A stretch of DNA of 64,000 nt from an uncultured Candidatus Saccharibacteria bacterium (GCA_964598205.1 CAZRBB010000003.1:17046-81045); one strand, 5' to 3'. Numbered from the stretch's first letter, positions 11,518-55,853 are shown. Notes: generated by a model not told the origin, from the sequence alone. Program-made: numbers and translations.

Positions 11518-11530
11518 ATAATTTAAAAAT

Positions 11531-20313: not shown

Positions 20314-20446
20314 GCGGGGGCAGTGTTCCCCCGTTTATATTACTTTAGAGGGGACTGCCGCCCGCCGAGCTCGTTATTAGAAGGTCGTTGCCAGTCTTTT
20401 TTTGTAGGGTGACAAACCACAAAAAGACATAATCCAATAACGAGTT
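20314..20446. other. GC-rich structured element in the divergent intergenic region (candidate ncRNA or regulatory RNA)
   Basis: GCGGGGGCAGTGTTCCCCCG hairpin, with long-range complementarity to GGGGACTGCCGCCCGC. A 9-bp stem GAGCTCGTTATT/AATAACGAG encloses ~57 nt. All of this sits in an otherwise AT-rich spacer. Confidence 0.3.
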
Positions 20447-20665
20447 TGGGAACTTTCGTTCCTTTGTTTTTACCAAGCGTTTTTTAAGTTAGCTTCTTTT
20501 TTGTTTTTGTTTTCTTTCTTCTTTCTTCTTTTTTGTTTTTGTTTTATATTTACGCTCAGCAAAAACCTTTTAAGAAATTTTCCCAAAAGACTTTTCCCGA
20601 ACTTGTTCGTCAAATCATTGCCCCTATAGTATAACACATAAATCATAAAATATCAATCCTCTAAA

Positions 20666-21985: not shown

Positions 21986-21991
21986 CCAGAT

Positions 21992-22357
21992 ATGAATCAA
22001 CGGAAAATACGAGGGAACAGAGGAGAAGACATTGCTTGTTATTATTTGACAAGAAAAGGATTTAATGTTGTTGCCAGAAACTACTCGGTTTCCTTTGGAG
22101 AAATCGACTTAATTGCAAAAAAGGGAAATCTTTTGGTTTTTGTAGAAGTAAAGTGCCGAAAACAGCAAATAAACAAGGACTCTGAAAATCCCGAATCTTC
22201 TATAAATGCTAACAAAATAAGGAAGATAAAGAAAACAGCTTCTTTTTTTATTAAGCAACAAGGATTGGATCCTGATGGAAATTATCGTTTTGATGCTATC
22301 TCTATTATAATAGGAAACAAAGTAATTTCTTTAAAACACATTCTTTATGCTTTTTAG
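21992..22357 (+). CDS. yraN: UPF0102/YraN-family endonuclease-like protein
   Basis: Typical YraN N-terminus (GNRGEDIACYYLTRKGFNVVARNYSVSFGEIDLIA ... VFVEVKCR). Confidence 0.85.
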   Translation: MNQRKIRGNRGEDIACYYLTRKGFNVVARNYSVSFGEIDLIAKKGNLLVFVEVKCRKQQINKDSENPESSINANKIRKIKKTASFFIKQQGLDPDGNYRFDAISIIIGNKVISLKHILYAF

Positions 22358-23675: not shown

Positions 23676-25105
23676 GCATTGCCTTGCCCAAGGAGGTAAA
23701 AAAAATTGCAGAAGTATTAAGGGAAAATAAATACCAAGTATTTTTGGTTGGTGGTTGCGTAAGAGACATTCTTTTAAACAAGAAGCCCAAAGATTGGGAT
23801 TTGACTACAGAGGCTTTGCCAGAAGATATTCAGCGCCTTTTCCCAGAAAGTTTTTACACAAACAACTTTGGAACAGTGGGAATTAAAAGCGAAGATCAAA
23901 AAATAGGAATAATAGAAGTAACAACATTCAGAAAGGAAGGAGAGTATTTTGACCGACGACGCCCGAATCAAGTTTTTTTTGTTAAAAACATAGAAGAAGA
24001 TCTTGGAAGAAGAGACTTTACTATCAATGCGATGGCTCTTGATCCCTTTTTGCACAGAATCGTTGATCCTTTCTGTGGAAAAGTTGATTTAAAAAACAAA
24101 TTAATAAGAGCGGTGGGAAATCCTTCTGATAGGTTTAGGGAAGATGCCTTGCGTTTACTAAGGGGTGTTCGTTTTTCTGCTCAACTTGATTTTAAAATAG
24201 AACCATTAACTTTTAGGGCACTTAAAAAAGAAGCACAGTTAATAAAAGAAATTTCCGAAGAAAGAATTGGAGAAGAGTTTAAGAAAATAGTTCTATCTCC
24301 TAAGCCAAGTCAAGGGGTTGAGCTTTTGGAACAGGCAGGCATTCTTTGCCTTATTATTCCGGAACTAGCAGGCACTATTGGCGTAAAGCAAAACCGACAC
24401 CATGTTTACACAGTTTATGAACATCTTCTTAAGTCCCTGGAGTTTTGTCCTAGCACTAAGCTTTCTGTAAGATTAGCGGCTCTTTTCCATGACATTGCCA
24501 AACCTCAGGTAAAAAGAGGCGAGGGAGAGCTGAGTACTTTCTACAACCACGATCTTTTGGGAGCAAGGATGGTAGAAAAAGTATTGGAAAGATTAAAGTT
24601 TTCTCAAAAAATAATTAAAAAAACATCCCTTTTGGTTAAAAATCACATGTTTTACTATGAAGCGGAGACAGTGACTCCGGCCAGCGTGCGAAGATTAATT
24701 AGAAAAACAGGCAAAGAAAATATAAAGGATCTTTTGGATTTGCGAATTGCCGACAGGTTGGGAAGCGGTTGTCCTAAGGCAAAACCTTATAAGTTAAGGC
24801 ACTTGGAATATTTGGTAGAAAAAGTTTCTAATGATCCTATTAATGTTGGGATGCTAAAAATAAACGGGAACGATTTGTTTTTGGCAGGGGTGGAAAAAGG
24901 TCCTAAAATGGGAGCAATCCTTGATGTTCTTTTGTCAAGAGTCCTAGAAGATCCTCTTTTAAATAAAAAAGGAGTCCTGGCCAAGGAGGCACAAAAATTA
25001 AACAACCTTGACCTAGAAGAATTAAAAACAAAAAGCCGAGAAAAAATAAAAGAGAAAAAAATGGAGGAAGATCGGATACTAAAAGATAAACATTGGGTTA
25101 AATAA
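23672..25105 (+). CDS. cca: CCA-adding tRNA nucleotidyltransferase (PolyA_pol head plus HD domain)
   Basis: LVGGCVRD ... DWD motif of class II nucleotidyltransferases; HD motif LFHDIAKP. Confidence 0.85.
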   Translation: MSIALPKEVKKIAEVLRENKYQVFLVGGCVRDILLNKKPKDWDLTTEALPEDIQRLFPESFYTNNFGTVGIKSEDQKIGIIEVTTFRKEGEYFDRRRPNQVFFVKNIEEDLGRRDFTINAMALDPFLHRIVDPFCGKVDLKNKLIRAVGNPSDRFREDALRLLRGVRFSAQLDFKIEPLTFRALKKEAQLIKEISEERIGEEFKKIVLSPKPSQGVELLEQAGILCLIIPELAGTIGVKQNRHHVYTVYEHLLKSLEFCPSTKLSVRLAALFHDIAKPQVKRGEGELSTFYNHDLLGARMVEKVLERLKFSQKIIKKTSLLVKNHMFYYEAETVTPASVRRLIRKTGKENIKDLLDLRIADRLGSGCPKAKPYKLRHLEYLVEKVSNDPINVGMLKINGNDLFLAGVEKGPKMGAILDVLLSRVLEDPLLNKKGVLAKEAQKLNNLDLEELKTKSREKIKEKKMEEDRILKDKHWVK

Positions 25106-38921: not shown

Positions 38922-39680
38922 TTATTTTTTTCCTCCTACTGTTTTCTTAATAAAATATTGCTGCAAGATTGAAACCGCCGTGCTTATGCTCCAGTAAAAA
39001 GGAAGGCCTGCGGGGAAGCCAAGTGCAAAAACAAAGGCCATTATCGGCATCATGTAAAGCATTTGCCCGCTAAGAATGTCTTGAAATTCTGGTTCCCTTG
39101 AGCCTTCTTCGGATTTTTCTTTTTTCTTTGGAGCTGGTGGCATGATTTGCTTAGAGTAGACAAACTGTAACGCCCCACTTAGTAGGGCAAGGAAGAAGTT
39201 TTTTTGAGCCAAATCAACAATCCCTAGAAAGGTTGTGTTCATTTCGGTTACTCCTTGAAAGAAAGAATGCCCATAAAGCAGTCCCTGAGAGACCGCTAAA
39301 TGTCCATCAACAAGAGAGAGTGCGGCGTTACCAGGAATTAGAACCCTGTACAAAGCAAAAAGAACGGGAAGTTGAATCAGGGCAATTAAACAACCCAGCG
39401 CAGGGTTTATGTTCTCTTTTTTATAAAGCGCTAAAACCTCTTTTCCTTGCTGTTCTTTGTTGTTTTTGAATTTTTCTTTTATTTCTTTTATTTGCGGTTG
39501 GAGGTTTTTTATTTGATGTTGAGAAGTGGCCTGTTTTTTAGTTAGGGGATAAAGAATTGTTTTAATAAGAATTGTTAAAAGAATAATGGCGATTCCAAAA
39601 TCTCCAAAAAACTTATAAAAAACAATCAGGGCGTTAAATAGGGGGCGGTAAAGCAGTTCGTCAAATAAAAATTTGAACAT
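38922..39680 (-). CDS. yidC: Membrane protein insertase YidC/Oxa1 (short form)
   Basis: Conserved ILLTILIKTILYPLT ... LYKKENINP region; downstream of rnpA. Confidence 0.85.
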   Translation of the reverse strand: MFKFLFDELLYRPLFNALIVFYKFFGDFGIAIILLTILIKTILYPLTKKQATSQHQIKNLQPQIKEIKEKFKNNKEQQGKEVLALYKKENINPALGCLIALIQLPVLFALYRVLIPGNAALSLVDGHLAVSQGLLYGHSFFQGVTEMNTTFLGIVDLAQKNFFLALLSGALQFVYSKQIMPPAPKKKEKSEEGSREPEFQDILSGQMLYMMPIMAFVFALGFPAGLPFYWSISTAVSILQQYFIKKTVGGKK

Positions 39681-39980
39681 TTATAATGGTTTTTTATTAA
39701 AGTGTCTTTCTAGGGAGCGGTTAATGTTTGGAAAAGAAATATTTACGCTCCTTACTAAAACAATAAACACCAACTCTTTAAACTGAGGATTTCTTTTTTT
39801 AAAAAAAAAGACAGATTCCCTGATTCTCCTTTTAGCTAGGTTTCTTTTTACTGCTCTTTTTTCTGTCTTTTTAGAAACCAAAACGATTGTTTTAGGTTTT
39901 AGGCTAGTCGCTTTTCTTAAAGAAACCACGCTTATACCGCTTAAAACATCTTCCTTTAAAAGGCTTTCTTTTTTAGACAT
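39681..39980 (-). CDS. rnpA: Ribonuclease P protein component
   Basis: 99 aa, basic, RNR-like motif [11 protein letters not shown]; classic rpmH-rnpA-yidC order. Confidence 0.85.
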
Positions 39981-40116
39981 TGGTTATTTTCTCTCTCTTT
40001 TTTTTCCTTCTTCTTGCTAAAACCTTTTGCCCTCCTTTGGTTTTCATTCTGCCACGAAACCCACAGCTTTTACTTCTTTTCCTTTTTTTTGGTTGATATG
40101 TTCTTTTGGTAGCCAT
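39973..40116 (-). CDS. rpmH: 50S ribosomal protein L34
   Basis: Manually translated [47 protein letters not shown]. Overlaps the rnpA start. Below the ORF-track cutoff. Confidence 0.85.
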
Positions 40117-40267
40117 AAACTTATTGTTATTTTATTAGCACATGTTATAAGGTAAACATAGGCTGTTTGATTGTCAATTTTTTCTTTTCAACAGCTTTTG
40201 AACATTTTTTATTTTTTTAAAAAAAGGAAGTATGCTAACATATTTTTTCCTCCCCTAAGACACTCTT

Positions 40268-41659
40268 ATGAACAAAAAGGAGATTTGGCAAGCGGTCCTT
40301 GGCGATGTTGAAATTACAATCAGTAAGGCGACTTTTGTTACTTGGTTTAACAATACCTTTATCTTAGAAATAAACAACAAGCAAGCAGTTGTTGCAGTGC
40401 CCAACGGCTTTAGTAAGGAGTGGTTAGAAAATAAATATTCTTTATTTGTTAAAAAATCATTGGCTAAGCACTATGGAGAAATAGAAAAATTAGAGTTTAG
40501 AATTACTCAACCTCAAAAGCCGATTTTAAAAAACAACCATTCTGCTGAGCCCCTCCCCAATGCCTTCTCGGAAAACCACTTAAACTCCGAAGACAGTCAA
40601 GAAACGGCAGGTCAAAATTTCCACCCCACCCAAACAACCGAAACAGGCCTTAATTCAAGATATACCTTTAACAATCTTATTGCTGGCAACCACAATGAGC
40701 TTGCTTTCTCTGCTTGCAAAAAGGTTGCCCTGTTCCCAGGAACCAAATACAATCCTCTTTTTATTCATGGAGGGGTTGGCTTAGGGAAAACCCATTTATT
40801 GCAAGCTATTGGGAATAGTGCCAACAAGAACGGTGGGCTGATTGTAAAATATGTTACATCGGAAAGGTTTACCACAGAGCTGGTTGGTGCTATTAAAAAA
40901 CAACAAATAGACTCTTTTAAGGAAGCTTATCGTCGTATCGACATTCTTTTAATAGACGATATTCAATTTATTGGAGGGAAAGAGAAAACTCAAGAAGAGT
41001 TTTTCCATGTTTTTAACGCTCTTTATCAAAACAATAAGCAGATTGTTCTTTGTTCTGATCGTCCACCAAAGTCAATTGCAACATTAGAAGAAAGGTTGCG
41101 TTCTCGTTTTGAAGGAGGAATTATTGTTGATGTTTTAAAGCCTGACCTTGAAACCAGGATGGCAATTCTCACCAGAAAAGCTCAAGAAATCTACCCAGAA
41201 GAAATCCCCCAAGAAACGCTTCTTTTTATTGCTCAAAGCATTAAAACCAATGTAAGAGAATTAGAGGGAGTTTTAAATCGATTATTGGCAGTTTGTGAAT
41301 TACAGCAATCTTTTCCTAGTTTGGAAAATGCTGAGAAGTTTTTAGGCAAAATAATACAAACAAGCGAACCAATAAAACAAACCCCAGAAAAAATAATACA
41401 AGCCGTGGGAGAGTTTTTTGGAATAAAAAAAGAAGAAATAAAAGGAAAGAAAAGGGGGCGAGAAATTATGAAGCCTCGGCAGGTTTCTATTTACCTAATT
41501 AGAAGACAATTAGGTCTGTCTTATCCAGCGATTGGTAAAGAGTTTGGAGGTAAAAATCATACAACAATTATGCATAGCTATAACAAGATTTCAAAAACAA
41601 TAGAGCAGGATCCGTTATTAAAACAAGAAGTTTCTTCTATCCTAGCTCGTATCTGTTAA
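40268..41659 (+). CDS. dnaA: Chromosomal replication initiator protein DnaA
   Basis: 463 aa; AAA+ Walker A GGVGLGKTHL; C-terminal DNA-binding domain. Confidence 0.97.
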   Translation: MNKKEIWQAVLGDVEITISKATFVTWFNNTFILEINNKQAVVAVPNGFSKEWLENKYSLFVKKSLAKHYGEIEKLEFRITQPQKPILKNNHSAEPLPNAFSENHLNSEDSQETAGQNFHPTQTTETGLNSRYTFNNLIAGNHNELAFSACKKVALFPGTKYNPLFIHGGVGLGKTHLLQAIGNSANKNGGLIVKYVTSERFTTELVGAIKKQQIDSFKEAYRRIDILLIDDIQFIGGKEKTQEEFFHVFNALYQNNKQIVLCSDRPPKSIATLEERLRSRFEGGIIVDVLKPDLETRMAILTRKAQEIYPEEIPQETLLFIAQSIKTNVRELEGVLNRLLAVCELQQSFPSLENAEKFLGKIIQTSEPIKQTPEKIIQAVGEFFGIKKEEIKGKKRGREIMKPRQVSIYLIRRQLGLSYPAIGKEFGGKNHTTIMHSYNKISKTIEQDPLLKQEVSSILARIC

Positions 41660-41826: not shown

Positions 41827-42945
41827 ATGAAAATAACTCTTACTAAGGAGAACATTCAGAAGGCTGTTAAAAAGTGTTTGTCTTTAACAACCACAAACAC
41901 ATCTCTTCCTATTTTGTCTAGCGTTCTTTTAGAAGCAATAAAAGGGGAGCTTGTTTTAAGTGTTACTAATTTAGAGTCTGGCTTAATTGTTAGGTCTAGA
42001 GCTTCAGTGGAAAGAGAGGGGAAAGTTGTGGTCTCTTTTAAAATTTTAAGCGGAGTTATTAGTGGGTTAGTTTCCAATGTTCTAACTTTAGAGAAAAGTG
42101 GCAATTCTTTGAAAATATCAACAGATGTTTTTGAAGCAGAAATAAAAATAAACGAAGACGAAGAGTTTCCTTTGATTCCGCAAATAAAAAAAGAAAATGA
42201 TTTTTTATTAAGTCCAGTAACACTTTCGGAAGCTATTAAAAAAGTATTACCAGCAACAGCTGTTTCAGGAATGAAGCCAGAATTAACTAGTGTTTATTTA
42301 GCTTCTTCTAAGGATGGGCTAAAAGTGGTTGCTACTGACGGTTTTCGATTAATCGAGGTAACATTAGGGAAGGAGGTAGGGAAAATTGATCCAATTATTA
42401 TTCCTTATAAAACGGCCCAGGAGGCTTATAAAATATTAAGCGGTATTCAGGGGGAGGATGTTTGTTTTTATACCCGAGAGAGTCAATTTATAATAGCTGG
42501 AAGCGATTTTTATTGGGTGTCTCGAGTGATTGATGGTCATTACCCAGATTATTGTAAAATAATTCCTCAAACAAAAATAACAGAGATTCTTTTTAAAAAA
42601 GAAGATTTTTTAGAGGCGGTAAGGGGCGCAGCAATTTTTGCCAACAATGAAACAAACGATGTGGTTCTTGACTACTCTTTAAAGAGCGGAAAAGTAACCG
42701 TTTTTGCCGAATCACAAAAAACAGGAAAATTCTCTGTGAAAATAGATAGCAAGATAGAGGGAAAAGAGGGGCGCATCTGCTTGAATTATAGATATTTATT
42801 AGATGGGCTTTTATGTTTAGAAAGCGAGGAAATTATAATGCTTATAAACCAAGAAACCAGCCCAGTGCTTTTAAAAGCAAAAAAAGCAAAAAAAGAAAGC
42901 AGTGTTCTTTGTTTAATATCGCCAATCAAAAAAAACAATGCTTGA
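41827..42945 (+). CDS. dnaN: DNA polymerase III beta sliding clamp
   Basis: 372 aa with three-domain beta-clamp organisation, immediately after dnaA. Confidence 0.95.
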   Translation: MKITLTKENIQKAVKKCLSLTTTNTSLPILSSVLLEAIKGELVLSVTNLESGLIVRSRASVEREGKVVVSFKILSGVISGLVSNVLTLEKSGNSLKISTDVFEAEIKINEDEEFPLIPQIKKENDFLLSPVTLSEAIKKVLPATAVSGMKPELTSVYLASSKDGLKVVATDGFRLIEVTLGKEVGKIDPIIIPYKTAQEAYKILSGIQGEDVCFYTRESQFIIAGSDFYWVSRVIDGHYPDYCKIIPQTKITEILFKKEDFLEAVRGAAIFANNETNDVVLDYSLKSGKVTVFAESQKTGKFSVKIDSKIEGKEGRICLNYRYLLDGLLCLESEEIIMLINQETSPVLLKAKKAKKESSVLCLISPIKKNNA

Positions 42946-43237
42946 TTTAGGACAAGAAGTGCAGGGCGTTTGGAAAAGAGCTGTTTTTTCTGGTGAGTTT
43001 AAATCCTTCCTGATTTGTCGTTATGCTACCGAGAGTATAGAAAAAATCACTCAACTTTCTGTGGGAAAAATAAAAGCAAAAAAATATTGCCAACAAACAA
43101 AAACACTAGAGATTGAAATGGAAGGCGTTTCTATTGGACAAGTGATTCGGAGGCAAGAAGAAAGGATTATAGAAGATGTGAACAAAAGAATTGGTGCTTG
43201 TTGTTTAAGGAAAATAAGATATCGTCTTTTTTCTTAG
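42938..43237 (+). CDS. Hypothetical protein, possibly DUF721/DciA-like (located after dnaN)
   Basis: 99 aa with a C-terminal pattern (TLEIEMEG ... IIEDVNKRIG ... IRYRL) reminiscent of DUF721; positional support only. Confidence 0.3.
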   Translation: MLDLGQEVQGVWKRAVFSGEFKSFLICRYATESIEKITQLSVGKIKAKKYCQQTKTLEIEMEGVSIGQVIRRQEERIIEDVNKRIGACCLRKIRYRLFS

Positions 43238-45453
43238 TTTTCCTCTTTTCCTTTGCAGCCGGTTTTTTCTGGAGGGCTTGGGTCTATATTGTTTTCTTCG
43301 GCCCATTTTTTTACGCCATCTTCCCAGCTTTTAAACTGAGGATCATTTTTTGGTTCTTTAGGATAAGGACCTCGGGGATCGTCTTTGTCTATGTAGAAAA
43401 GAATAGAATGGCTTTCTCTAAAGGTTTTTTTCTTAGTGTTTTTAGAGGAACAGGTTTCACTAGCCAGGTACCCTGATTTTTTATCAATACGCAGTTCTAC
43501 TTCTTTTTCTAAAAAACCTCCAATCATGGGCTTATTTACATCTTCTTCTTCTGGTCGGATAAAGTCTTCTTTTGAGTAATCATTAATAAAGCGGTCCATA
43601 AAATTCCTCCAGATAGGGGCTGCTACAACAGAACCATCTGCTCCTTGCTTCATTGGAAGATTATTGTTATTGCCAACCCAAACACCAACAGCTATTTGGG
43701 GCGTGTAGCCAACGGTCCAGGCGTCTCTAAATTCTTGAGTGGTTCCTGTTTTGCCAGCAGTGTTTTTCCCAGAGATATATAGCGGATTGTTTCTGCCAAA
43801 AACAGGAGCTCTGGCGGAATTATCGGAAAGACAGTCATTTATTTGTCTGGCTATTTGAGAGTTTAAAACCCTTTTTCCGCCAGGACTGATATTTTCTTTA
43901 ACAAGCCCTCCCTCAGAGTTTTCAATTTTTAAAATGCTTTTTTCTTCTTGTTTAAGGCCGTCGTTGGCAAAAACAGAGAAGGCCTGGGTTTCTTCTTTTA
44001 GGGTAACCTCTCCTCCTCCTAAGACTAAAGCTAGGCCATAGCGACTTCTGTCTTTTAGTGTTTTAATTCCCATAGATTCGGCCAGGTCAATAGTTTCGTT
44101 AATTCCAGAAAGATAGAGCGTTTTAACGGCAGGAACATTTAGCGACATGGCAAGGGCGCTCTTCATGCTTATTGGGCCAATGAATTTCCCGCTGTAATTT
44201 TGGGGAGAGTATTTTACGCCAGGTCGATCTTCAAAGTCTGTTTTTACATCAAAAAGAATGGTTTTTGGTAAGTATCCTTTAATAAAAGCTGCGGCATACG
44301 CAAAGGGCTTAAAAGAAGACCCTGGCTGTCGGGGTCTTAGGGCAACATTTACATTTCCATTATTCTCTTTGTCAAAATAGTCAACAGAGCCAACCATTGC
44401 TAAAACTTCTCCATTTTTAGGATCAATAACCACCATAGCAGCATTAGTAGCTCCAAAATCTTTCTTATTTCTTTCTGCTTGTTGTTTTATTGCTTCTTCG
44501 GCGGCTATTTGTAGTTTCCAGTCTAGGGAGGTGTATATTTTTAGTCCCCCGCTTTCTATAAAGCCTTCTCCATATTCATCGACTAGTTTTTGTTTAACAT
44601 AAATAACAAAATGAGGGGCTTTAATTAAAGTGGCAAAGGGTTTTATTTTAGAAATAGTGTCTATTTTTAAGGCTTCTACTGCTTCGGATTGTTTAATGTA
44701 GCCCAAGTCTTCCATTCTTTTAATGATCCATTCTTTCCTCCAAAGGAGTCTTTCAATATTGTTGCCATAAGGAGAATAAAATGTTGGGGCCTTGGGAAGC
44801 GCTGCTAGAACGGCGCTTTCGTCTAAAGAAAGCTCTATGGCTGGTTTTCCAAAAAAGGTTTGGGCAGCGGCTTCAATCCCATAAGCATTGGAACCATAAG
44901 GAATTTCATTGAGATACATTTCTAGGATTTGATCCTTAGAAAAGCGTCGTTCTAATTCTAAGGAAAGAATGGCTTCTTTTACTTTTCGGGTATAAGTTTT
45001 TTCTGAAGAAAGAACAGAGTTTTTAATAAGCTGTTGTGTGATAGTAGAAGCTCCTTGGGATTTTGAATGCTTAAGATCTGCCAAGATGGCTCTTAAAATA
45101 GCTTTAAAATCTAATCCATGATGGTTATAGAATTGATCGTCCTCTGCAACAATGGTTGTGTTTTTTATAAAAAGAGGCATTCTGTTAAAAGGAATAACAG
45201 TCCTCTTTTCTTCTCCATGGATCTCATAAAGAAGAACTTCTCCGGTGCGATCAAAAATTTTAGTGGACTCGGCCATTTTCCTTTGGGATAGCTGGCCGGA
45301 AGAAGGAAGCTCTCTTGAGTAGTAAATAAAAACTCCTACCGCAAAAACAATTGCCAAAAGAAACCCGCTTACAAAAAGCTTAGCCAAAAAGAAAAAAAGA
45401 CTTCTTTTTTTTGGTTCAGGGAGTTTTTCTTTGGAAGGTTTTTTTGTGATCAT
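43234..45453 (-). CDS. Class A penicillin-binding protein (transglycosylase plus transpeptidase)
   Basis: N-terminal TM anchor; GT51 motifs (EDDQFYNHHGLD, ITQQL); transpeptidase domain with SxxK/SxN/KTG-type regions. Confidence 0.9.
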   Translation of the reverse strand: MITKKPSKEKLPEPKKRSLFFFLAKLFVSGFLLAIVFAVGVFIYYSRELPSSGQLSQRKMAESTKIFDRTGEVLLYEIHGEEKRTVIPFNRMPLFIKNTTIVAEDDQFYNHHGLDFKAILRAILADLKHSKSQGASTITQQLIKNSVLSSEKTYTRKVKEAILSLELERRFSKDQILEMYLNEIPYGSNAYGIEAAAQTFFGKPAIELSLDESAVLAALPKAPTFYSPYGNNIERLLWRKEWIIKRMEDLGYIKQSEAVEALKIDTISKIKPFATLIKAPHFVIYVKQKLVDEYGEGFIESGGLKIYTSLDWKLQIAAEEAIKQQAERNKKDFGATNAAMVVIDPKNGEVLAMVGSVDYFDKENNGNVNVALRPRQPGSSFKPFAYAAAFIKGYLPKTILFDVKTDFEDRPGVKYSPQNYSGKFIGPISMKSALAMSLNVPAVKTLYLSGINETIDLAESMGIKTLKDRSRYGLALVLGGGEVTLKEETQAFSVFANDGLKQEEKSILKIENSEGGLVKENISPGGKRVLNSQIARQINDCLSDNSARAPVFGRNNPLYISGKNTAGKTGTTQEFRDAWTVGYTPQIAVGVWVGNNNNLPMKQGADGSVVAAPIWRNFMDRFINDYSKEDFIRPEEEDVNKPMIGGFLEKEVELRIDKKSGYLASETCSSKNTKKKTFRESHSILFYIDKDDPRGPYPKEPKNDPQFKSWEDGVKKWAEENNIDPSPPEKTGCKGKEEN

Positions 45454-46900
45454 GAGGGGCTTTATGAGTTTGGGTGATATGGAGGGATTGATAGGTGGCC
45501 TTTACCACAGAAGCTCCAAAGGCATTGAGCCTTGTTCCCATATTTTGGCTTATTTGGCAAGAGAACACAACCCTGAAAATGCGACCGGGATCTTTTTTGT
45601 TTATTTTTCGAGGAAAAGAAGGAACGCCGTCTACTATTAAAAATTCTTTAGCGTTTTTAATCTGAGAAAAAGAAAATCCTTTTCTTTTAAAAACAAGCTT
45701 TTTATTCTTTAAGCAATAAACACCAGCTCTCAGAGAACCTTTTATAAAAGCCGGCTTATAAGGAGCTCGGACAAAGAGATGGGCTTTTTCCGGAGACTTA
45801 ATAGAAAGTGTTTCTTTTTTTTGATACAAAGCTCTAGGAAGGGGTTGTTTAAGAAATTCTAAAACATGAAAAGCAACTAATGGAATTTCTTTTTTTTGAA
45901 GCTGAATTAGCGTAGAAACAGGGAATGTTCCTAAGAGTCGAGGGTTTAACTCTAATGGGAAAACATTTTTTTGTTTCCAATCAACAATAAAATCAACACC
46001 AAAAATTCCCCTAAAGCCTTCTTTTCTTAGGGCTATGCCTATTTGCTGGACTGTTCTTTTCATTTTGCCCTGTATTTGTTTTTTAATTTTAAAAGCCTCG
46101 CTCCAGTCGTGCCCGCAAAAGACGCCTTGGCCCTTTGCTTGAGGGAAAAGCTCTTGGATGTCGATTAATTGAAGCTGAGGAGGGATTTGGAATATTTTTT
46201 TCTTAGTTACGCATCCTGTAATGCTAGGAGAAAACCCATCAACAAATGGAGAAACAACAACAGAAGAGCTCCAAGAAAGTTGCTGGTCTTTTTTAAGCAC
46301 GGTAATGGCAGTTGCAAAATCGGTTTTGTTTTTTATAAAAAAAGTTCCACCACCACCTCCTCTTTTTGGGTTTTGAACAACAAAGACAGAGGAAAAGATG
46401 CGAGAAGCGTTGTTGTATCCCTGTTTTTTAAGAACGGCTAGTGTTATGTTTTTTTTAAGCAACCCAGAGAGCGAGGCTTTTTTTAAAAGTTTTTTAAAAA
46501 AAACCTTATTTTCTAGCTTTTTTTCTAGAGATATAGGATTGGCAGCAAGAATCCAGCCCTTTTTCTTGGCCAAGAATTCCAAAGACGAACTGCTTTTATA
46601 AAGAAGGATGACGGGAGGATTCTTTTTGTTTGCTAATCCAATAAAAGATTGCGCGTTTTTATCCTTAAGAACAGAAAAAGGGTTTCTTTTGGTTTCTTTT
46701 GGGATTTTTTTAAGAGATTCTTCTAGGCAAAAAAGAGGAATGCCAAACTTTCTTATATGTTCGATTTCCGCCGAATAGTTTAGGCAGGCAATTTTGAAAT
46801 TTGGAAAAATATTTTCACAACCAATACGACCAAAGGCCTGAACAGAAGCTCCAATAATGGGGTTTTTAATTTTTTCAAAGAGAGTTTTGGTGCTGGTCAT
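45416..46900 (-). CDS. ATP-grasp family ligase (second of two tandem ATP-grasp genes)
   Basis: Glycine-rich loop KRGGGGGTFF and C-terminal ATP-grasp motif FGVDFIVDWKQKNVFPLELNPR. Confidence 0.6.
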   Translation of the reverse strand: MTSTKTLFEKIKNPIIGASVQAFGRIGCENIFPNFKIACLNYSAEIEHIRKFGIPLFCLEESLKKIPKETKRNPFSVLKDKNAQSFIGLANKKNPPVILLYKSSSSLEFLAKKKGWILAANPISLEKKLENKVFFKKLLKKASLSGLLKKNITLAVLKKQGYNNASRIFSSVFVVQNPKRGGGGGTFFIKNKTDFATAITVLKKDQQLSWSSSVVVSPFVDGFSPSITGCVTKKKIFQIPPQLQLIDIQELFPQAKGQGVFCGHDWSEAFKIKKQIQGKMKRTVQQIGIALRKEGFRGIFGVDFIVDWKQKNVFPLELNPRLLGTFPVSTLIQLQKKEIPLVAFHVLEFLKQPLPRALYQKKETLSIKSPEKAHLFVRAPYKPAFIKGSLRAGVYCLKNKKLVFKRKGFSFSQIKNAKEFLIVDGVPSFPRKINKKDPGRIFRVVFSCQISQNMGTRLNAFGASVVKATYQSLHITQTHKAPHDHKKTFQRKTP

Positions 46901-48300
46901 CTATTCTTGTAAATAGTTCTCGGTTTTTGGGGGTCTATAATAAAGCTTTTAAGCGCTGCTCGACCAATAATTGCCTTACACTTTAGCTCTCTTCGATCGG
47001 CAATGGTAGCGGGAACTTCAAAAGAAACGCCTCCCAATGACAGGCTAATCCGTACTTTAGGGCGAAGGGTTTTTCCATTAGCAGAAAGAACACTAACTGC
47101 TCCCAAAAAAAGAGGATGAGTTTTTAGCTTTTCTTTTTTGGCGTGGTTATTGAAGTAAGGGTTAAAGCTTTCTAAGATTTCCCCAAAACCCAAAGATTCG
47201 GCTAGCTCAGAACAAATAGAAGTAGAATAGGCGCCAGTGTCTATTTTAGCCTCGACTGTTTTTTCTAGATTAGATAGAGGGTTTTTTACAGTAATAGATT
47301 CAAAAATTCCAATAATTTTCCTTCCAGTAAGATCTTCTATGTCTTCTTCTATTTCTCCGCCAAAAAGATCTTGTCCTACACGAACACCTCTTTTAGCCGA
47401 GATTATTTTAAGCCCCTCTACCTTGTTTAGTCTAGATTTTAACGGAGCAAGGTTGGCAATTTGAATGCCCAGTCCTGGTCGGGCATTGAGTTCTGCAACA
47501 ATAGGGCCTCTTTCTCTGTCGATCATAATATCTACTCCCAAATATCCAATTCCGGAAAGCTGTTGTGTTTTAATGGACATTTCTAGAACTTCTTGCCAAA
47601 AAGGGATGGCGATTCCTGAAAGAGAAAGACGGGTTTTGGGAACCTTTTCTAAAAAGAATTCTTTCTGGGTGGCCATGTTTCGAGTAATGGCAGTGGTGGT
47701 GATTCCAGTGGCTAGATCTATCCCAGCACAGATCCCTCCCAGATGAAGATTGGCTCGACCGCCAGACTGCTCGGTAGGGAGTCTTAGCATGGCCATTATT
47801 GGAACATTGTTAAAAACAATAACGCGAATGTCTGGAATTCCCCGAAAACAATAGGGCTTGAAAAGTTTAATAATTCGAACCCTTTCTTCAAAGAAGGCAG
47901 AGTCAACAACCCCAGACAACGAATAGTTTCCTTCTAGGATATTGATAATGTGTGTTTTTAAGTCTTGGACAGAGACTTCTTGTTTGTCTGCTTTTACCCA
48001 GTTACCGTTTTTTTTCTTTCCATAAACAACAATAATCCCTTCGCCTCCAAGACCTTTGTTTGGTTTAAGGGCAAAGGAGCTGGGTAGATTTTCCCAATTA
48101 AAAGAATCAAGCTCTTTTAGGCTGGAGATTTTTCCTATTAAAGAGGAAACAGGAATATTGTTTTTTCGGAGTAGTCGTTTGGTTAGGAGTTTGTTGTCGG
48201 CAAACTTCCGCGCTCCCTTTTTGTTATAGGGCCGGGTATATTCTAGATTGCGGGAGTTCATCCCCAAAAGCTGGCTACTTTTTTTCAGGAATTTCAACAT
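46897..48300 (-). CDS. Alpha-L-glutamate-ligase-related ATP-grasp enzyme fused to a C-terminal retropepsin-like (DTGA, clan AA/DUF785-type) domain
   Basis: ATP-grasp motifs (ANLHLGGICAGIDL, GYLGVDIMIDRERGPIVAELNARPG) followed by KIDTGAYSTSI and a beta-rich tail typical of the putative ATP-dependent zinc protease/retropepsin-like family. Confidence 0.65.
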   Translation of the reverse strand: MLKFLKKSSQLLGMNSRNLEYTRPYNKKGARKFADNKLLTKRLLRKNNIPVSSLIGKISSLKELDSFNWENLPSSFALKPNKGLGGEGIIVVYGKKKNGNWVKADKQEVSVQDLKTHIINILEGNYSLSGVVDSAFFEERVRIIKLFKPYCFRGIPDIRVIVFNNVPIMAMLRLPTEQSGGRANLHLGGICAGIDLATGITTTAITRNMATQKEFFLEKVPKTRLSLSGIAIPFWQEVLEMSIKTQQLSGIGYLGVDIMIDRERGPIVAELNARPGLGIQIANLAPLKSRLNKVEGLKIISAKRGVRVGQDLFGGEIEEDIEDLTGRKIIGIFESITVKNPLSNLEKTVEAKIDTGAYSTSICSELAESLGFGEILESFNPYFNNHAKKEKLKTHPLFLGAVSVLSANGKTLRPKVRISLSLGGVSFEVPATIADRRELKCKAIIGRAALKSFIIDPQKPRTIYKNR

Positions 48301-48934
48301 TTTTTATAACTTCTTTGAACCTAAAATATTCAGAAAAACGAAGACCTGTCCATTTTCCTAGGGCAATATTAAAGAGAATAACTAAAATAATAAGCCAAGG
48401 ATAACTAAGTAAAAGTGTTCGCAAAAAATCGGCACTAGCTACAAAGTAGGCCAGAATGGAAAGAAGAAGTGTTTCTAAGGACAAAAAAATAGCCGTTTTG
48501 GCCCCCTTTTCTATTTGAACCAAAATAAACTTTTCCATTAAAGTGATCATGATTAAAAGAGGGAAAATAGAGACCGAGGCTAAGCCAGTTCTTTTAAAAT
48601 AACCTCCAAGCATTAATACAAAAAAAATGGCTACAGAAACAAGGGAGAGCATAATAGATACTCGAGGAAGGTGCAGTAAGCGAAACCCCTTAAGAGTAAT
48701 GCGAGAAATGGTTCCAGCTATTAAAATGATTAGAAAAAGGAAAACTCCATATTTTAGTCCAGTGGAAAGGAAGGCAATGGCGATAATAGACGGAGTGTAA
48801 ATACCAAAAGCCTTAATTCCAATAACTTGCCTGGCAATTGCCATGGTAGTTACAATCAGGGGGAAAATTAAAATTAGTTCAATGGTTTCTTGGGGAACGC
48901 CTTGGGTTGATGCAAACCTAACAATGTTGTGCAT
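48275..48934 (-). CDS. Seven-TM membrane protein (partner of the ATP-grasp/retropepsin module)
   Basis: 219 aa with seven predicted hydrophobic helices; first gene of the overlapping operon. Confidence 0.5.
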   Translation of the reverse strand: MHNIVRFASTQGVPQETIELILIFPLIVTTMAIARQVIGIKAFGIYTPSIIAIAFLSTGLKYGVFLFLIILIAGTISRITLKGFRLLHLPRVSIMLSLVSVAIFFVLMLGGYFKRTGLASVSIFPLLIMITLMEKFILVQIEKGAKTAIFLSLETLLLSILAYFVASADFLRTLLLSYPWLIILVILFNIALGKWTGLRFSEYFRFKEVIKNVEIPEKK

Positions 48935-49472: not shown

Positions 49473-51398
49473 CTAAAAATTAAAAACAGAAAACAAAAAG
49501 TTAACAAAATAATTCTTAAGATTCAAGAGGGACAGGCTGTTTTTGGGTTTTTTAAGAGAAAGAGGATTGTTGAACATTTCTTTTGATTCTTTTGTTGGCG
49601 GCTGGGTTTTTAAAAGGGTGTTTGCTGGTTCATTGTTGGTCACGGTCTTTTGTTGGGAAGCGGTGGTTTTTTGCGTGGCCAGCATTAAGGATTGGTTGAT
49701 AGAAATAGATGTTTTAATTTCTTTTATGCTGTTTGTGATTATTTTTTTTCCACCGAGAGAATCTTCTTCCAATATCCCTTTTACCTTAAAAGAAGAGTTT
49801 TTCTTTATTGCTAAAAGGTCCTGATCGATCTGTGGAGGAAATTCTAGAAGAAGTTCGAATCCATTTTTGTTTTTAATTAAAAAGCGCTTGTTTTTAGCAT
49901 AGGAGATTGTTCCAGAAAATTCAACCAAAGAAGCAACAAGAGGGGAACAGTCTTTTTTGCTAAGGCAAATATCTAAAGATGCTTCGTTGAGTTTTTTTTG
50001 ACCGTCTGCTCTTGCTTGTTCTTCTTTTTCCGATTTAAGGAAAAGACGATCGTTGTTTTTATAAAGAGTGCCAGAAATAATGAGCCGATCTTGTTCTTGG
50101 AAGGAATGAATATAGCCTGTTTTTACAAGAATACCGCCACCGTTGAGCTGTAAATAAAAACCGCTTTTACCAAAAGGAGAGGCAAGAGAAGAAACCGTTC
50201 CCACAATAAGAACAGAAGAAAGGTTGGGCTTTTTTTTTAGGGAAGTAAAATGGCTTTGGGCTTGGTCGGTCTTTGTTAGGAAATCTTTAGGAAAAATAAG
50301 TTCACGAGAGGAGCCCGAAAGAGTGGCCGATTCCGTGCTTGGTGTGGCAGAGCTTGATGGACAGGACTCTTCTAGGCATTCAGGGTTGATCCAAAAAAGA
50401 TAGCCATCGTTATTTTTAAAGAAAACCTTATTTTCTTTGGCTGACTCTTTAAAAGAAAGAGAATTGATTAATGTCTTGTTTGGGGCAACCAGGGAAATGG
50501 TTTCCGAAGAATTATGAAGGTCAAAACCAAAGAAGTTTCCGAATAGCTGTATTGTTTTTTTAGGACCAAGAATAAGGTCTGTGTTGAAAATAAAATCATC
50601 TTCGCTTTGATTAAGAAGCTTCCAGTTATAAAGATTAACATTAAAATTGTTGGGGTTTGAAATAACGACAAACTCTTTTTCTTTTGTGTCTAGGCCAGAG
50701 GGGTTTGGGAAAATTGCCTGAACTACAAGAGAAGGATAGCTGTTTGTTTTTTCTTGAGCTGATAATAACGATGGATTTGATGGTTCGGCGGAGGAATTCG
50801 TAGTGGCGTTGGGTGGATCGGTGGTGTCACTGGAGGACCCTGGCAAGATAGAGGTTGGGTTAAGGGAAGAATCTTTTGGTGCTGTTCCGGGAGTGCCGTA
50901 TTCAGAATTTTCCAAAAGAGAGGTGCTTGCCTTCCAAAGATTGGAGCTTGGGAAAAACTCCAAAGAAACGCCTTCTTTTACTGATGATGCTTGATATTCC
51001 AAGGAGGAGCATTCTTTTTGTTCTGATCCAAAAATAATTTTCCCACCAGAATTAACCAGAGAAAGCTTTTCGTATTGATAAAAACAGGGAATGTTTTTTT
51101 GAGAAAGAGCTTCTTTGTTTCTGCAGGCAACAGAATAAGAGAGTGGTTCTAAGAAAAAATCTTCTTTAATGGTAAAGGAAGATTGATTGGCAATAAGGGT
51201 AAGATCTTTTAAATTTACAGCAACAGCAGATTCATTAAAAAGCTCCAACCATTCTCCCTCAGTATCGGAAAAAATGGCGGGGTTAATCATTGCTTCGCTT
51301 AAGACGACTCCCGGTGGGCAATCGGCAGCGAAGGTTGCCGAGGGGAAGAAAGACCAAATACTTCCAAAAAATAAAACAGAAAAAAATAATGGCTTCAT
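49473..51398 (-). CDS. Secreted protein with two lamin-tail (LTD) domains and a Ser/Thr-rich linker
   Basis: Signal peptide; LTD motifs (EAMINP ... EWLELFN ... VNLKDLTL; and IFPNPSG ... EFVVISNP ... VNLYNWKL); low-complexity S/T-rich region. Confidence 0.6.
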   Translation of the reverse strand: MKPLFFSVLFFGSIWSFFPSATFAADCPPGVVLSEAMINPAIFSDTEGEWLELFNESAVAVNLKDLTLIANQSSFTIKEDFFLEPLSYSVACRNKEALSQKNIPCFYQYEKLSLVNSGGKIIFGSEQKECSSLEYQASSVKEGVSLEFFPSSNLWKASTSLLENSEYGTPGTAPKDSSLNPTSILPGSSSDTTDPPNATTNSSAEPSNPSLLSAQEKTNSYPSLVVQAIFPNPSGLDTKEKEFVVISNPNNFNVNLYNWKLLNQSEDDFIFNTDLILGPKKTIQLFGNFFGFDLHNSSETISLVAPNKTLINSLSFKESAKENKVFFKNNDGYLFWINPECLEESCPSSSATPSTESATLSGSSRELIFPKDFLTKTDQAQSHFTSLKKKPNLSSVLIVGTVSSLASPFGKSGFYLQLNGGGILVKTGYIHSFQEQDRLIISGTLYKNNDRLFLKSEKEEQARADGQKKLNEASLDICLSKKDCSPLVASLVEFSGTISYAKNKRFLIKNKNGFELLLEFPPQIDQDLLAIKKNSSFKVKGILEEDSLGGKKIITNSIKEIKTSISINQSLMLATQKTTASQQKTVTNNEPANTLLKTQPPTKESKEMFNNPLSLKKPKNSLSLLNLKNYFVNFLFSVFNF

Positions 51399-52705: not shown

Positions 52706-55700
52706 TTATTCTTCTGTAGCGCGAATAATTTCTGCCATACTAGTAATTCCTTCAACTACTTTTAGGACACCGTCTTGAGCCATCGTCAACATGCCTTCGG
52801 AAACGGCTTGCTTTAGAATAACAGAAGTGGTGGAGAAACGGGAAATTAATTCTTCTAGGGCTTCGGACATGACCATTACCTCTGTGACCGGAGCAATCCC
52901 GGAATAGCCAGTATTTTTACACTTAAGGCAACCTACGGGAACAAAAATTTGTTCTATTTTTTGAGGGATAGCAATATGAGCCGTTTCGGGAATGCTTCTG
53001 ATAACGGTTTTTATTTTTTCTAAAACTTCTGGACTGGGGTTTTCGGCTCTTTTGCATTCTGGGCAGAGGCGACGAACTAGTCGTTGTGCCATTAGGGCAT
53101 TAGTGGCAGAAGCAATGTCGGAAGGGTCAATGTTCATGTTAAGCAACCGCTGGACAGAAGCTACTGCATTGTTGGTGTGAAGGGATGAGAGAACTAAATG
53201 GCCAGTCAGAGAAGCTTGGATAGCAATCTTGGCAGTTTCTTCGTCTCTGATTTCTCCAATCATTAGAACATCTGGGTTTTGACGGAGCAGTGCGCGAAGA
53301 GCGCTGGAAAAATCGTAACCTTCTTCGGTGTTGATTTGAGTTTGCAGAACGCCCTTTAGGCGGTATTCAATTGGGTCTTCTACGGTGATTATTTTTCGTT
53401 CAGGAGTATTGATTTTATTTAACAGAGAATAAAGAGTAGTAGTCTTTCCACTACCGGTGGGGCCAGTGTTTAAGATAATTCCATTGGGTTTCTCTACTTC
53501 AGCCAAGAGTCGGCTTAAGGTTTCCGACCGAATCCCTATTGCATTAATGTCTAGAGAACGAGCTGATTTATGAAGAAGTCTAATCACAACGGTTTCCCCA
53601 TATCCTCCTGTAATAATAGAAACACGAGCGTCAATTTCTTGGTCGGCAATATTTTCTAGAGGGATTTTGAGCTTAATACCAAAACGACTATCGCGGACGG
53701 CCTGATGAGAGCTAGCTTTAAAGCCGGAAAGGTTTTTAATTCTTCCAAGAAGAGGGAAATAAGTGTTGCCGGAAATGGAGCCAATGTCTTGGAGAATGCC
53801 ATCAATGCGGAAACGAATTTTTACCCCATCTCCTTCTGGTTCAAGGTGGATGTCTCCTGCATCAAAATACAGTGCTCCACCAATAACATATTCTAGAGAG
53901 TTTTGATTGGTGGCGCTTGTAATTAAGGCGGCTAGGGCCTGAGGATTGAACTTTGTTTTGAAAACATCTTTTAGCTGATCTTCTTCTAAAACGATTTGCA
54001 AAGAAAGAAGGCGACTCATTACATTGTCGTAAATTTCTTTTAAAAACTCTCCAGAACCAGTGGCTCGCTGAATTTCTTCCATGCTTGTTTCTCCAGTAAC
54101 GGCCTTAAGAATGCCGTCTTGCAAAAGAGTTACCATACCATCTTCCATGGCAGCGCTGAGAATATCGGAATCGGGCTTCATTTCTATAATTAAGTCTTCA
54201 ATGTTTTTATTTATTTCTAAAACCTCGAAAATGCCGATACGCCCTCGATATCCTAAGCTATGACACTTAGGACAACCAACGGCCCGAAAAAGAGTCTTAA
54301 TGTCTTTAGGGATTTCTAAGTTGGCCTTGGGAGAAATAATGGAAAGAAATTGGCCGATGGTTTCTAGGGTTCCCGAGGCGGGAACATATTCTTCCTTGCA
54401 GTCAGGACATAGGCGGCGAACTAAGCGTTGAGCAATAATGATATTGCAAGAAGGGCCGATTAGAGATGGTCGAACACCTAAGTCGACTAATCGGGGAATG
54501 GCGCCAGAAGAAGAGTTGGCATGAACAGTGGAAAAAACTAAATGGCCAGTGAGAGCAGCGTGGGTGGCAATGTCGGCGGTTTCTTCGTCTCTAATTTCTC
54601 CTACCAAGATAACATCGGGGTCTTGCCGGACAATAGAGCGAAGTCCCGTGGCAAAATCATAGCCTCTCTCTTTGTGAACTTGGGTTTGGGAAATGCCTGG
54701 TAACTTATATTCGATTGGATCTTCTATGGTAATGATTTTAGTGGAAGGAGAATTAACTCTTTTAAGACAAGCATAAAGAGTGGTTGTTTTACCGCTACCG
54801 GTGGGCCCAGTATTGAGAATCATCCCGTTAGGCTTTTCTATTTGTCCAAGCAATTGATCAAGAGCTCTGCCTCTTAATCCCATTTGGTCTAGGTCAACAC
54901 TAGACATGTCTTGGTTTAAAAGACGCATTACAATATTTTCTCCAAAGTTTCCCGGCAAAAGGGAGACTCTAACATCTACCGAGCCTAGTGCGGCATCTTC
55001 TAAATTTATTTCGAAGCGTCCGTCTTGAGCTTGGTCTTTAATGTTTAGCTTAAGCTGAGCAATCATTTTTACTCGAGAAAGAACATAAGGATAGACTCGG
55101 TACGGAACAAAACAGATGTTTTGCAAGACTCCGTCAATACGATAACGGAGGCGAACATTTTCTTTTTGAGGTTCCAAGTGAATATCGCTAGAGCTAACCT
55201 TGAGTGCTCCGGCAATTATAATGTTTAGGATTTTAGTGGTGGGGAGTTCTAGGATTTTTCGCTGAAGGTTGGATAACTCTTTAATTTCTTCTTCGAATTC
55301 GGCCAAGTCTTTTCCGGAAAGATTGATTTTTGTTTCTTCTAAAAATCCGCCTAAGTTAAAAACTTTGTATTTTTGAAGAGTGCGATTAAAGCCGGTTTTA
55401 GAAACGATGTAAAATCGACAAAGAAATCCTTCTTTTTTTTCTAAGTCGTAAACCGCTTTTTGGGTCATTGGATCCTTGGGGTTCAATGTGGCTACTTTTA
55501 GATTTTTTCCTGATCGCTGAATAATTAGAAGACCGGAATTTCTGGAAAAATCCTCACTGACAGTGTTTAGGGTGTCTATATCTACTGGGAAAATATTTAA
55601 ATCCAAGTAGGGCAACTTTTGTTTGGCAGCAAAAAAAGCAGTTTGTTCTTCTTCAGAATAAGAACGAACTTGTCGCGAGACATCTTGATATGGTAGTTCG

Positions 55701-55744
55701 TTAAATTGTGTTTCTTCTCCTGATTTTTTTTGGATAATAACCAC
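52706..55744 (-). CDS. pilB: Tandem-fused double type II/IV secretion ATPase (two complete GspE/PilB modules in one 1012-aa protein)
   Basis: Two GspII_E N-domains; two Walker A boxes (GPTGSGKTTTLYACL and GPTGSGKTTTLYSLL); two tetracysteine zinc motifs (CPDCK ... CPKCH and CPECK ... CLKCK). Confidence 0.85.
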   Translation of the reverse strand: MVIIQKKSGEETQFNELPYQDVSRQVRSYSEEEQTAFFAAKQKLPYLDLNIFPVDIDTLNTVSEDFSRNSGLLIIQRSGKNLKVATLNPKDPMTQKAVYDLEKKEGFLCRFYIVSKTGFNRTLQKYKVFNLGGFLEETKINLSGKDLAEFEEEIKELSNLQRKILELPTTKILNIIIAGALKVSSSDIHLEPQKENVRLRYRIDGVLQNICFVPYRVYPYVLSRVKMIAQLKLNIKDQAQDGRFEINLEDAALGSVDVRVSLLPGNFGENIVMRLLNQDMSSVDLDQMGLRGRALDQLLGQIEKPNGMILNTGPTGSGKTTTLYACLKRVNSPSTKIITIEDPIEYKLPGISQTQVHKERGYDFATGLRSIVRQDPDVILVGEIRDEETADIATHAALTGHLVFSTVHANSSSGAIPRLVDLGVRPSLIGPSCNIIIAQRLVRRLCPDCKEEYVPASGTLETIGQFLSIISPKANLEIPKDIKTLFRAVGCPKCHSLGYRGRIGIFEVLEINKNIEDLIIEMKPDSDILSAAMEDGMVTLLQDGILKAVTGETSMEEIQRATGSGEFLKEIYDNVMSRLLSLQIVLEEDQLKDVFKTKFNPQALAALITSATNQNSLEYVIGGALYFDAGDIHLEPEGDGVKIRFRIDGILQDIGSISGNTYFPLLGRIKNLSGFKASSHQAVRDSRFGIKLKIPLENIADQEIDARVSIITGGYGETVVIRLLHKSARSLDINAIGIRSETLSRLLAEVEKPNGIILNTGPTGSGKTTTLYSLLNKINTPERKIITVEDPIEYRLKGVLQTQINTEEGYDFSSALRALLRQNPDVLMIGEIRDEETAKIAIQASLTGHLVLSSLHTNNAVASVQRLLNMNIDPSDIASATNALMAQRLVRRLCPECKRAENPSPEVLEKIKTVIRSIPETAHIAIPQKIEQIFVPVGCLKCKNTGYSGIAPVTEVMVMSEALEELISRFSTTSVILKQAVSEGMLTMAQDGVLKVVEGITSMAEIIRATEE

Positions 55745-55853
55745 AGTTTTTGTTTAATGGGTGTATTTTTTGAAAGTTTATCTAAAAAAAGAGCTTTCGG
55801 CAAAGAAAGTTAGATGGGTTTACTTTTTTGTTTAAGCTAGATACAATTTTTTT

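Follow-up and report, generated by a model that had tools for sequence, protein, structure and literature searches.

The stress-tolerance operon rloABC of Pseudomonas aeruginosa, named by Lormand et al. (mBio 2025; PMC12239564), codes for a secreted retropepsin-like protease, RloA, and a cytoplasmic ATP-grasp protein, RloC, that is 24% identical to RimK. RloA is a dimer and cleaves runs of at least eight glutamates; the substrate is coordinated by K46, R114 and R137 together with R92. Loss of all three RloA paralogues leads to hypo-osmotic lethality, shape defects, poor biofilm formation and antibiotic sensitivity, including sensitivity to beta-lactams, and the defects of the triple rloA1-3 deletion are suppressed by deletion of rloB or rloC, which places ligase, membrane protein and protease in one pathway. 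The rlo orthologues of Vibrio are within the VxrAB cell-wall-integrity regulon, and in the published survey RloB was 96% proteobacterial (all PMC12239564). Disruption of an RloB homologue in Shewanella resulted in more membrane vesicles (PMC12096838). RimB, a retropepsin-like endopeptidase, takes polyglutamate off S6 and has a stimulating effect on RimK (Little et al., JBC 2025; PMC11957791), and a natural hybrid from Desulfotalea psychrophila, RimBK (DP2392), carries the RimB domain N-terminal to RimK (PMC11957791). The locus described here is located on 64,000 nt of DNA from an uncultured Candidatus Saccharibacteria bacterium (GCA_964598205.1 CAZRBB010000003.1:17046-81045; this whole stretch is called the window) and encodes an ATP-grasp ligase and a retropepsin fused into one protein, together with a seven-helix membrane protein (7TM protein), a second ATP-grasp ligase (GRASP2) and a class A penicillin-binding protein (PBP1A).

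Judged by its sequence, this locus is a Patescibacterial variant of the RloABC system and is related to RimK/RimB. A sequence-only reading of the window had called the trio of ATP-grasp, retropepsin-like and 7TM proteins uncharacterised. This has to be corrected, because the trio matches the RloA/RloB/RloC operon that has been studied genetically and structurally in P. aeruginosa (PMC12239564). The locus represents an architecture of this system that is widespread but has not been discussed before; the system as such became known only in 2025, and no new kind of system is at issue.

Two samples served for comparison: 80 genome loci of a Moranbacteria-like lineage (lineage 1) and 80 metagenome loci around a distant relative of the Shapirobacteria type with about 43% identity (lineage 2). 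Residues 8-313 of the fused protein match PF14397 (E 4.5e-65, 220 bits at a cut-off of 31.4), and the model for 'alpha-L-glutamate ligase-like protein', TIGR02291, is matched over its positions 9-313 of 317 (E 1.1e-80, 271 bits). K79, D257, E270 and N272 are invariant in an alignment of 81 lineage-1 sequences and are retained in 64/64 lineage-2 sequences; E138 and R274 are invariant or nearly so in the lineage-1 alignment. Degenerate ATP-grasp motifs, which would have spoken against the sequence-only reading, are therefore not what is found in the fused protein. In an AlphaFold2 model, calculated from a 30-sequence alignment with a mean predicted local distance difference test score (pLDDT) of 82, the closest PDB folds to the ligase domain are ArgX/LysX and RimK (Foldseek, E ~1e-9 to 1e-10), enzymes that attach residues to C-terminal glutamates of proteins. 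The ligase domain is, as predicted from these residues and profiles, an RloC-type ATP-grasp domain, and both active sites of the fused protein are intact.

For the C-terminal part of the fused protein there are weak matches to PF05618, Asp_protease_2 and the NCBIfam models for RloA, RloA2, RloA3 and RimB. Its DTGA motif (residues 354-357) and G446 are invariant in lineage 1. When the whole fused model was compared with the PDB, ATP-grasp structures filled the top 50 Foldseek matches, and the C-terminal domain was therefore assessed via a viral structure library. There it matches a phage 'acid protease' (25% identity, E 1.3e-9, template modelling score on the target 0.75); further matches are phage proteins annotated as 'ATP-dependent zinc protease' and proteases from STLV-1, HIV-1, spumavirus and badnaviruses. 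The retropepsin fold that had been proposed for the DTGA region is thus borne out by the model and its protease matches. A family profile matches PDB 9g59 and 9g58 (E ~5e-6; both chains are labelled 'Putative ATP-dependent zinc protease domain-containing protein') as well as 2pma, an RloA-like protein (PMC12239564), with the DTGA, R-P and D-R motifs in register. K352, D354, R413 and R436 are the equivalents of K46, D48, R114 and R137 of RloA and are invariant in the 81 sequences of lineage 1, and the spacing of 23 residues between R413 and R436 is identical to that of the two arginines in RloA. The equivalents of K352 (K or R counted), R413 and R436 are kept in 63-64 of 64 lineage-2 sequences. 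It is mainly on account of these conserved residues that a polyglutamate-like, acidic substrate is expected. In a hydropathy scan the fused protein shows neither a signal peptide nor a transmembrane or other hydrophobic segment, and the disulfide cysteine pair that is conserved in periplasmic RloA is missing from the 81-sequence alignment; the cysteines C363 and C441 of the window protein are not conserved, the family having mostly D and Y at these positions. Because of these two features, the protease domain is predicted to be one that must act in the cytoplasm and is not secreted.

The two domains are connected by an acidic linker. The motif FGGE[IV]EEE[VIL]EE is 80-100% conserved at most positions in the lineage-1 alignment, positions 321 and 323 being more variable. 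In lineage 2 a non-acidic LFAERFADRV stretch takes its place although the protease residues are kept, so the linker is not general to the system and is a lineage-specific feature. A function of the linker as self-cleavage or pseudo-substrate site was considered and rejected, since the stretch is not acidic in lineage 2 and never contains the eight consecutive glutamates needed by RloA. At one locus (L063 5591-7667) the fused gene seems to be split or extended: the tblastn match covers about 2 kb, and a second short open reading frame (ORF) carries the end of the protein, which suggests an insertion or a frameshift.

The 7TM protein matches PF14402 (7TM_transglut; E 9e-30, 104 bits at a cut-off of 25). 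The alignment with the NCBIfam RloB model is restricted to model positions 311-508 of 508 and scores 96 bits at a cut-off of 900; a Pfam profile search of the 7TM protein gave no match to a transglutaminase family. A hydropathy scan revealed seven hydrophobic segments, and with 14 lysines and arginines predicted inside and 4 outside the topology would be N-out/C-in. Conservation reaches 95% or more at over 60 positions, among them R35, K41-P48, R85xLHLPR91, E134, E142, E154 and W195xGLR199, and the predicted cytoplasmic loops are rich in invariant arginine and lysine. The gene is located directly upstream of the fused gene and on the same strand in 76/77 testable loci of lineage 1 and 63/63 of lineage 2, that is in 139 of 140.

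GRASP2 has weak family matches: PF02655 (E 1.6e-7) and NF005096, 'biotin carboxylase' (E 6e-28, 97 bits at a cut-off of 684). Its Mg-binding motif ELNPR is intact, and the best folds for its AlphaFold2 model (pLDDT 90) are biotin carboxylase and PurK (E ~1e-16, template modelling score ~0.6, 11-13% identity). We found 121 homologues, of which every named one is Patescibacterial. Homologues with 33-35% identity still adjoin the 7TM gene and the fused gene in L081, L084 and L085, loci that cover both lineages, and GRASP2 is for this reason a genuine accessory of the module, which we treat as a putative amide-forming ligase. A true biotin carboxylase was rejected: the likeness is one of fold only, the score is 97 bits where 684 are required, and no gene for a biotin carboxyl carrier protein or a carboxyltransferase is present in any neighbourhood examined. 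At L086 (1000-11500) a distant GRASP2 relative (28% identity) is found without the 7TM and fused genes; its neighbours are two RimK-like ligases, an Opp-type ABC importer, an ATP-grasp protein of the L-amino-acid-ligase type, a radical SAM enzyme and a beta-lactamase-fold protein.

Accessory ligases follow the fused gene in both lineages. In lineage 1 a variable cassette of 1-5 kb usually separates the fused gene from PBP1A; RimK-like ATP-grasp genes are present in it in numbers of one to three (66 ORFs in 43 loci, 22 ORFs in 21 loci), sometimes along with MATCAP-type carboxypeptidases (PF08014), a Mur-ligase-like protein, glycosyltransferases, or YdjC or GNAT genes. This place is taken by GRASP2 in 5/68 loci, and it is GRASP2 that takes it in the window. 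In lineage 2 the fused gene has RimK-like ligases after it in 38/41 loci and GRASP2 in a few. The cassettes of L018, L035 and L056 contain a Mur-ligase-like protein (PF08245) of 410-442 aa together with RimK/CphA-like ATP-grasp ORFs, a pairing that resembles a split cyanophycin-synthetase arrangement. Genes for MATCAP-type metallocarboxypeptidases (PF08014, formerly DUF1704) recur in L026, L034, L046, L051, L057, L061 and L081, which hints at removal of C-terminal residues beside addition by ATP-grasp enzymes. At L092 of lineage 2 (11281-14222, plus strand) HlyD, an ABC ATPase and a MacB/FtsX permease, that is a MacAB-type exporter, come directly after the fused gene and occupy the place taken elsewhere by RimK-like ligases; a Ddl gene is nearby on the other strand.

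In the window the four genes are overlapping ORFs on the minus strand, from 48934 down to 43234 (Table 1). Arrangement, coordinates and gene identities all agree with the sequence-only reading; an independent gene caller on a public contig predicts the same four genes, the domain profiles match a 7TM protein, a fusion of ATP-grasp and retropepsin, a second ATP-grasp protein and a PBP1A, and the exact gene order, whose absence from all relatives would have spoken against that reading, is kept in the relatives L001 and L002. As read from the sequence, the 7TM gene overlaps the fused gene by 26 nt, the fused gene overlaps GRASP2 by 4 nt (ATGA) and GRASP2 overlaps PBP1A by 38 nt; a gap of 59 nt separates the block from ruvC upstream. 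A sequence scan found no promoter-like or terminator-like site within the block above the shuffled background, so that an operon is neither supported nor broken by it. Co-transcription of the block including PBP1A is plausible in this genome, as suggested by the overlaps.

Table 1 Positions of the module and its overlapping neighbour, counted from the first nucleotide of the window
Feature	Position	Strand	Size and basis
7TM protein, RloB-type, no inactive-transglutaminase ectodomain	48275..48934	-	219 aa; PF14402
Fused ligase-retropepsin protein	46897..48300	-	467 aa; PF14397, TIGR02291 and DTGA
RloC-type ATP-grasp (alpha-L-glutamate-ligase-like) domain of the fused protein (predicted)	47326..48300	-	residues 1 to ~325
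RloA/RimB-type retropepsin domain of the fused protein (predicted)	46897..47325, stop codon included	-	residues ~326-467
Acidic interdomain linker of the fused protein, F313-G-G-E-I-E-E-D-I-E-D323	47332..47364	-	motif conservation in lineage 1
GRASP2, putative accessory ATP-grasp ligase	45416..46900	-	494 aa; biotin-carboxylase/PurK-type three-domain architecture
PBP1A, class A penicillin-binding protein; co-oriented overlapping neighbour outside the conserved module	43234..45453	-	739 aa

Several features around the block deserve mention. Between ruvB and ruvC (49473-51398, minus strand) a protein of 641 aa is encoded that has an N-terminal hydrophobic segment and a lamin-tail domain (LTD; PF00932, E 2e-16); similar LTD proteins are found at the equivalent position in L001, L002, L051, L081 and L085. 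The end of dnaN is overlapped by a 99-aa ORF on the plus strand (42938-43237) that runs towards the stop codon of PBP1A. No Pfam family matches this ORF; L001 and L002 have counterparts of it (48-52 bits), and in L081 a gene of 94 aa is called at the corresponding place. The GC skew changes sign near 20-22 kb of the window, where GC falls to 0.31; dnaA and dnaN are at 40.3-42.9 kb, about 20 kb from the switch. The stretches of note in this respect are 20001-24000 and 39680-40268. An ORF of about 1,012 aa (52706-55753, minus strand) ends in ...IRATEE and is the sole product of the window with two terminal glutamates.

Fusion of the two domains is widespread and is the rule in Patescibacteria. 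It is matched by more than 5,500 protein clusters; the best 120 are all 456-498 aa long and carry PF14397, most of them also PF05618, and their source names are Patescibacteria, mostly Moranbacteria. The neighbourhood of PBP1A is a different matter. The protein itself is a class A enzyme by its profiles (TIGR02074, 524 bits at a cut-off of 508.75; PF00912, Transgly, and PF00905, Transpeptidase) and has the motifs EDxxFxxHxG, SSFK, SLN and KTGT. In lineage 1 its gene is downstream of the module in 50/54 loci, 47 times on the same strand and three times on the opposite strand (L011, L021, L033). It abuts the fused gene directly in L012, and in L081 and L085 genes for tyrosyl-tRNA or aspartyl-tRNA synthetase on the opposite strand lie between module and PBP1A. 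The upstream ruvC is present in 67/72 lineage-1 loci, and dnaN and dnaA beyond PBP1A are conserved to the same degree. In lineage 2, PBP1A was found in 0/23 loci for which 8 kb or more of downstream sequence is available, and ruvC in 0/47; the flanks are unrelated housekeeping genes, and no other wall gene is consistently present at the loci examined. Since ruvC, dnaN and dnaA are as well conserved in lineage 1 as PBP1A, the adjacency is probably inherited origin-proximal synteny (ruvB, LTD, ruvC, module, PBP1A, dnaN, dnaA) and not a sign of shared function. The sequence-only reading had seen functional coupling to a peptidoglycan synthase. In the survey of co-occurrence proposed along with it, PBP1A accompanies the module in lineage 1 and not in lineage 2, and a coupling that is restricted to one lineage and accompanied by equally conserved ruvC, dnaN and dnaA is not upheld. 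The conserved unit, as seen in both lineages, is the 7TM protein with the fused ligase-protease and accessory ligases.

We favour, with a probability of about 55%, a membrane-coupled system that would build and trim polyglutamate or a similar acidic peptide, with the PBP1A gene as a syntenic neighbour. The ligase domain would use ATP to produce alpha-linked oligo- or polyglutamate or a similar acidic peptide, either free or on the C terminus of a target. The tethered protease would dimerise and cut long acidic chains, and chain length would be set and the product turned over or released in this way, as RimB does for RimK. The 7TM partner would hold the enzyme at the membrane; it may also pass the product across or couple the activity to the state of the envelope or to osmotic conditions. 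GRASP2 may add a further amide-ligation step. An envelope-related role is plausible for such a system, as suggested by the Pseudomonas phenotypes (shape, beta-lactam sensitivity, hypo-osmotic lethality) and not by adjacency to a PBP gene. One could go further and speculate that the fused protein and the 7TM protein make and export short glutamate-rich peptides for incorporation into the wall or attachment to it, and that in the Moranbacteria-like lineage a class A PBP is co-expressed with the two proteins; such peptides would serve as anionic wall polymer or osmotic buffer. This extension is quite improbable; if true, glutamate-rich wall-peptide chemistry would explain the wall and osmotic phenotypes of the Pseudomonas rlo mutants.

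A number of points weigh against a polyglutamate system of this kind. The score of 271 bits for TIGR02291 is below the trusted cut-off of 314.2, and the C-terminal domain of the window protein reaches 22.9 bits with PF05618, for which the gathering score is 27. Only family resemblance suggests glutamate as substrate of RloC-type ligases. Anchoring, export and sensing are proposals for the 7TM protein. PBP1A is, after all, downstream on the same strand in 47/54 lineage-1 loci, and co-expression could matter there. The Pseudomonas protease is secreted whereas the one of the window is predicted to be cytoplasmic, and the picture of an exported substrate that is cleaved outside is therefore not directly transferable. 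Ligation activity has been demonstrated for no RloC-type ligase (PMC12239564), and RimBK of D. psychrophila, though active as a protease, did not glutamylate RpsF of P. fluorescens SBW25 (PMC11957791).

Different products or targets have to be considered for the same enzymes. Serial ATP-grasp synthesis of a small non-ribosomal peptide, a cyanophycin-like polymer or a mixed tag, matured or released by the retropepsin and exported by the 7TM protein, would make sense of the variable cassette with its RimK-like ligases, GRASP2, MATCAP enzymes (PF08014), Mur-ligase-like protein next to a CphA-like ATP-grasp protein, GNAT, YdjC and glycosyltransferase genes. It would also fit the MacAB-type exporter directly after the fused gene in L092 and the distant GRASP2 relative in L086 with its L-amino-acid-ligase, radical SAM and Opp genes. 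Yet it is just this variability, set against the constant core of 7TM and fused genes, that makes a single defined multi-residue product unlikely as the conserved function; the conserved polyglutamate-binding residues moreover point to a homopolymeric acidic substrate, and we regard a mixed peptide as unlikely. A modification of peptidoglycan or its stem peptide, in which amino acids attached to a wall precursor by the ligases are edited by the protease, with the 7TM protein responsible for the membrane step and PBP1A for polymerisation of the modified precursor, is suggested by the overlap of all four genes in the genome of the window. It can further invoke the co-oriented PBP1A in 47/54 lineage-1 loci and its direct contact with the fused gene in L012, the rlo phenotypes of Pseudomonas and the membership in the VxrAB regulon of Vibrio (PMC12239564), and the existence of wall-precursor ATP-grasp ligases such as Ddl, a gene for which lies near the module in L092. 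The wider comparison does not follow this lead. PBP1A is found within 8 kb in 0/23 loci of lineage 2, where no other wall gene is consistent; the equal conservation of ruvC, dnaN and dnaA in lineage 1 points to origin-proximal synteny; in L011, L021 and L033 the PBP1A gene is read from the other strand, and in L081 and L085 it is separated from the module by opposite-strand tRNA synthetase genes; and the polyglutamate-binding residues kept by the protease would be unsuited to a stem-peptide substrate. A stem-peptide system is thus unlikely.

Very improbable, finally, is a cytoplasmic polyglutamylation and trimming of S6 (RpsF) as by RimK/RimB or RimBK. Ligase and protease are predicted to be both cytoplasmic and are joined as in RimBK, RimK is among the closest solved folds of the ligase domain, and in L084 the module is only about 2 kb from rpsF-ssb-rpsR. 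But the S6 of L084 ends in KRRGD and has no glutamate tail, and rpsF is not found within the 64-kb window. The ligase belongs to the TIGR02291/PF14397 subfamily and scores 52 bits with the RimK family model TIGR00768, for which the cut-off is 143; its domain order is the reverse of that in RimBK, and a 7TM partner, present at 139/140 loci, is not part of RimK systems.

A role in anti-phage defence was rejected, as 0/4 proteins matched PADLOC. With LysX/ArgX and LysW the likeness is restricted to the fold: LysX and ArgX are the closest solved folds to the ligase domain (17-18% identity) and ligate an amino acid to the C-terminal glutamate of the small carrier protein LysW, whereas the module has no LysW-like small ORF and no genes of lysine or arginine biosynthesis are nearby. 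RimK, RimB and RimBK resemble the locus in that a cytoplasmic ATP-grasp glutamate ligase is paired with a polyglutamate-cutting retropepsin and that a natural fusion with an active protease part exists. In contrast to the window protein, with its order of ligase then protease and its RloC-type ligase, the protease is N-terminal in RimBK; this hybrid lacks a 7TM partner and is known chiefly from Flavobacteriales and Rhodobacterales. Iyer, Abhiman, Burroughs and Aravind are said to have predicted, in Mol Biosyst in 2009, that ATP-grasp ligases of this family work together with a peptidase and a 7TM protein of the inactive-transglutaminase type to ligate or modify peptides.

With RloABC the locus shares the same families, PF14397/TIGR02291 for RloC, PF14402 for RloB and PF05618 with DTGA for RloA, in a single operon, and the polyglutamate-binding lysine and arginine residues of RloA are kept in the window protein. 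It differs in that ligase and protease are one polypeptide, in the order ligase to protease, with no signal peptide and no conserved disulfide cysteines, that the 7TM protein has no N-terminal inactive-transglutaminase ectodomain, and that extra ATP-grasp ligases accompany the core. The range of the system is thereby extended well past the mostly proteobacterial distribution reported in 2025. As RloABC bears on antibiotic tolerance, biofilm formation, cell shape and osmotic survival in Pseudomonas, the compact constructs offered by the Patescibacterial proteins should be useful for the biochemistry of Rlo and Rim systems and for work on the Patescibacterial envelope. Compared with RloABC, the Patescibacterial proteins amount to a simplification made by nature, a single cytoplasmic ligase-protease plus a 7TM protein without ectodomain, found in bacteria that are generally regarded as lacking an outer membrane and retained by a large number of reduced genomes. 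From this it can be argued that what is conserved in the pathway is the joint action of ligase, protease and 7TM protein on the cytoplasmic side of the membrane; a transglutaminase-like ectodomain and a secreted protease would not belong to this core.

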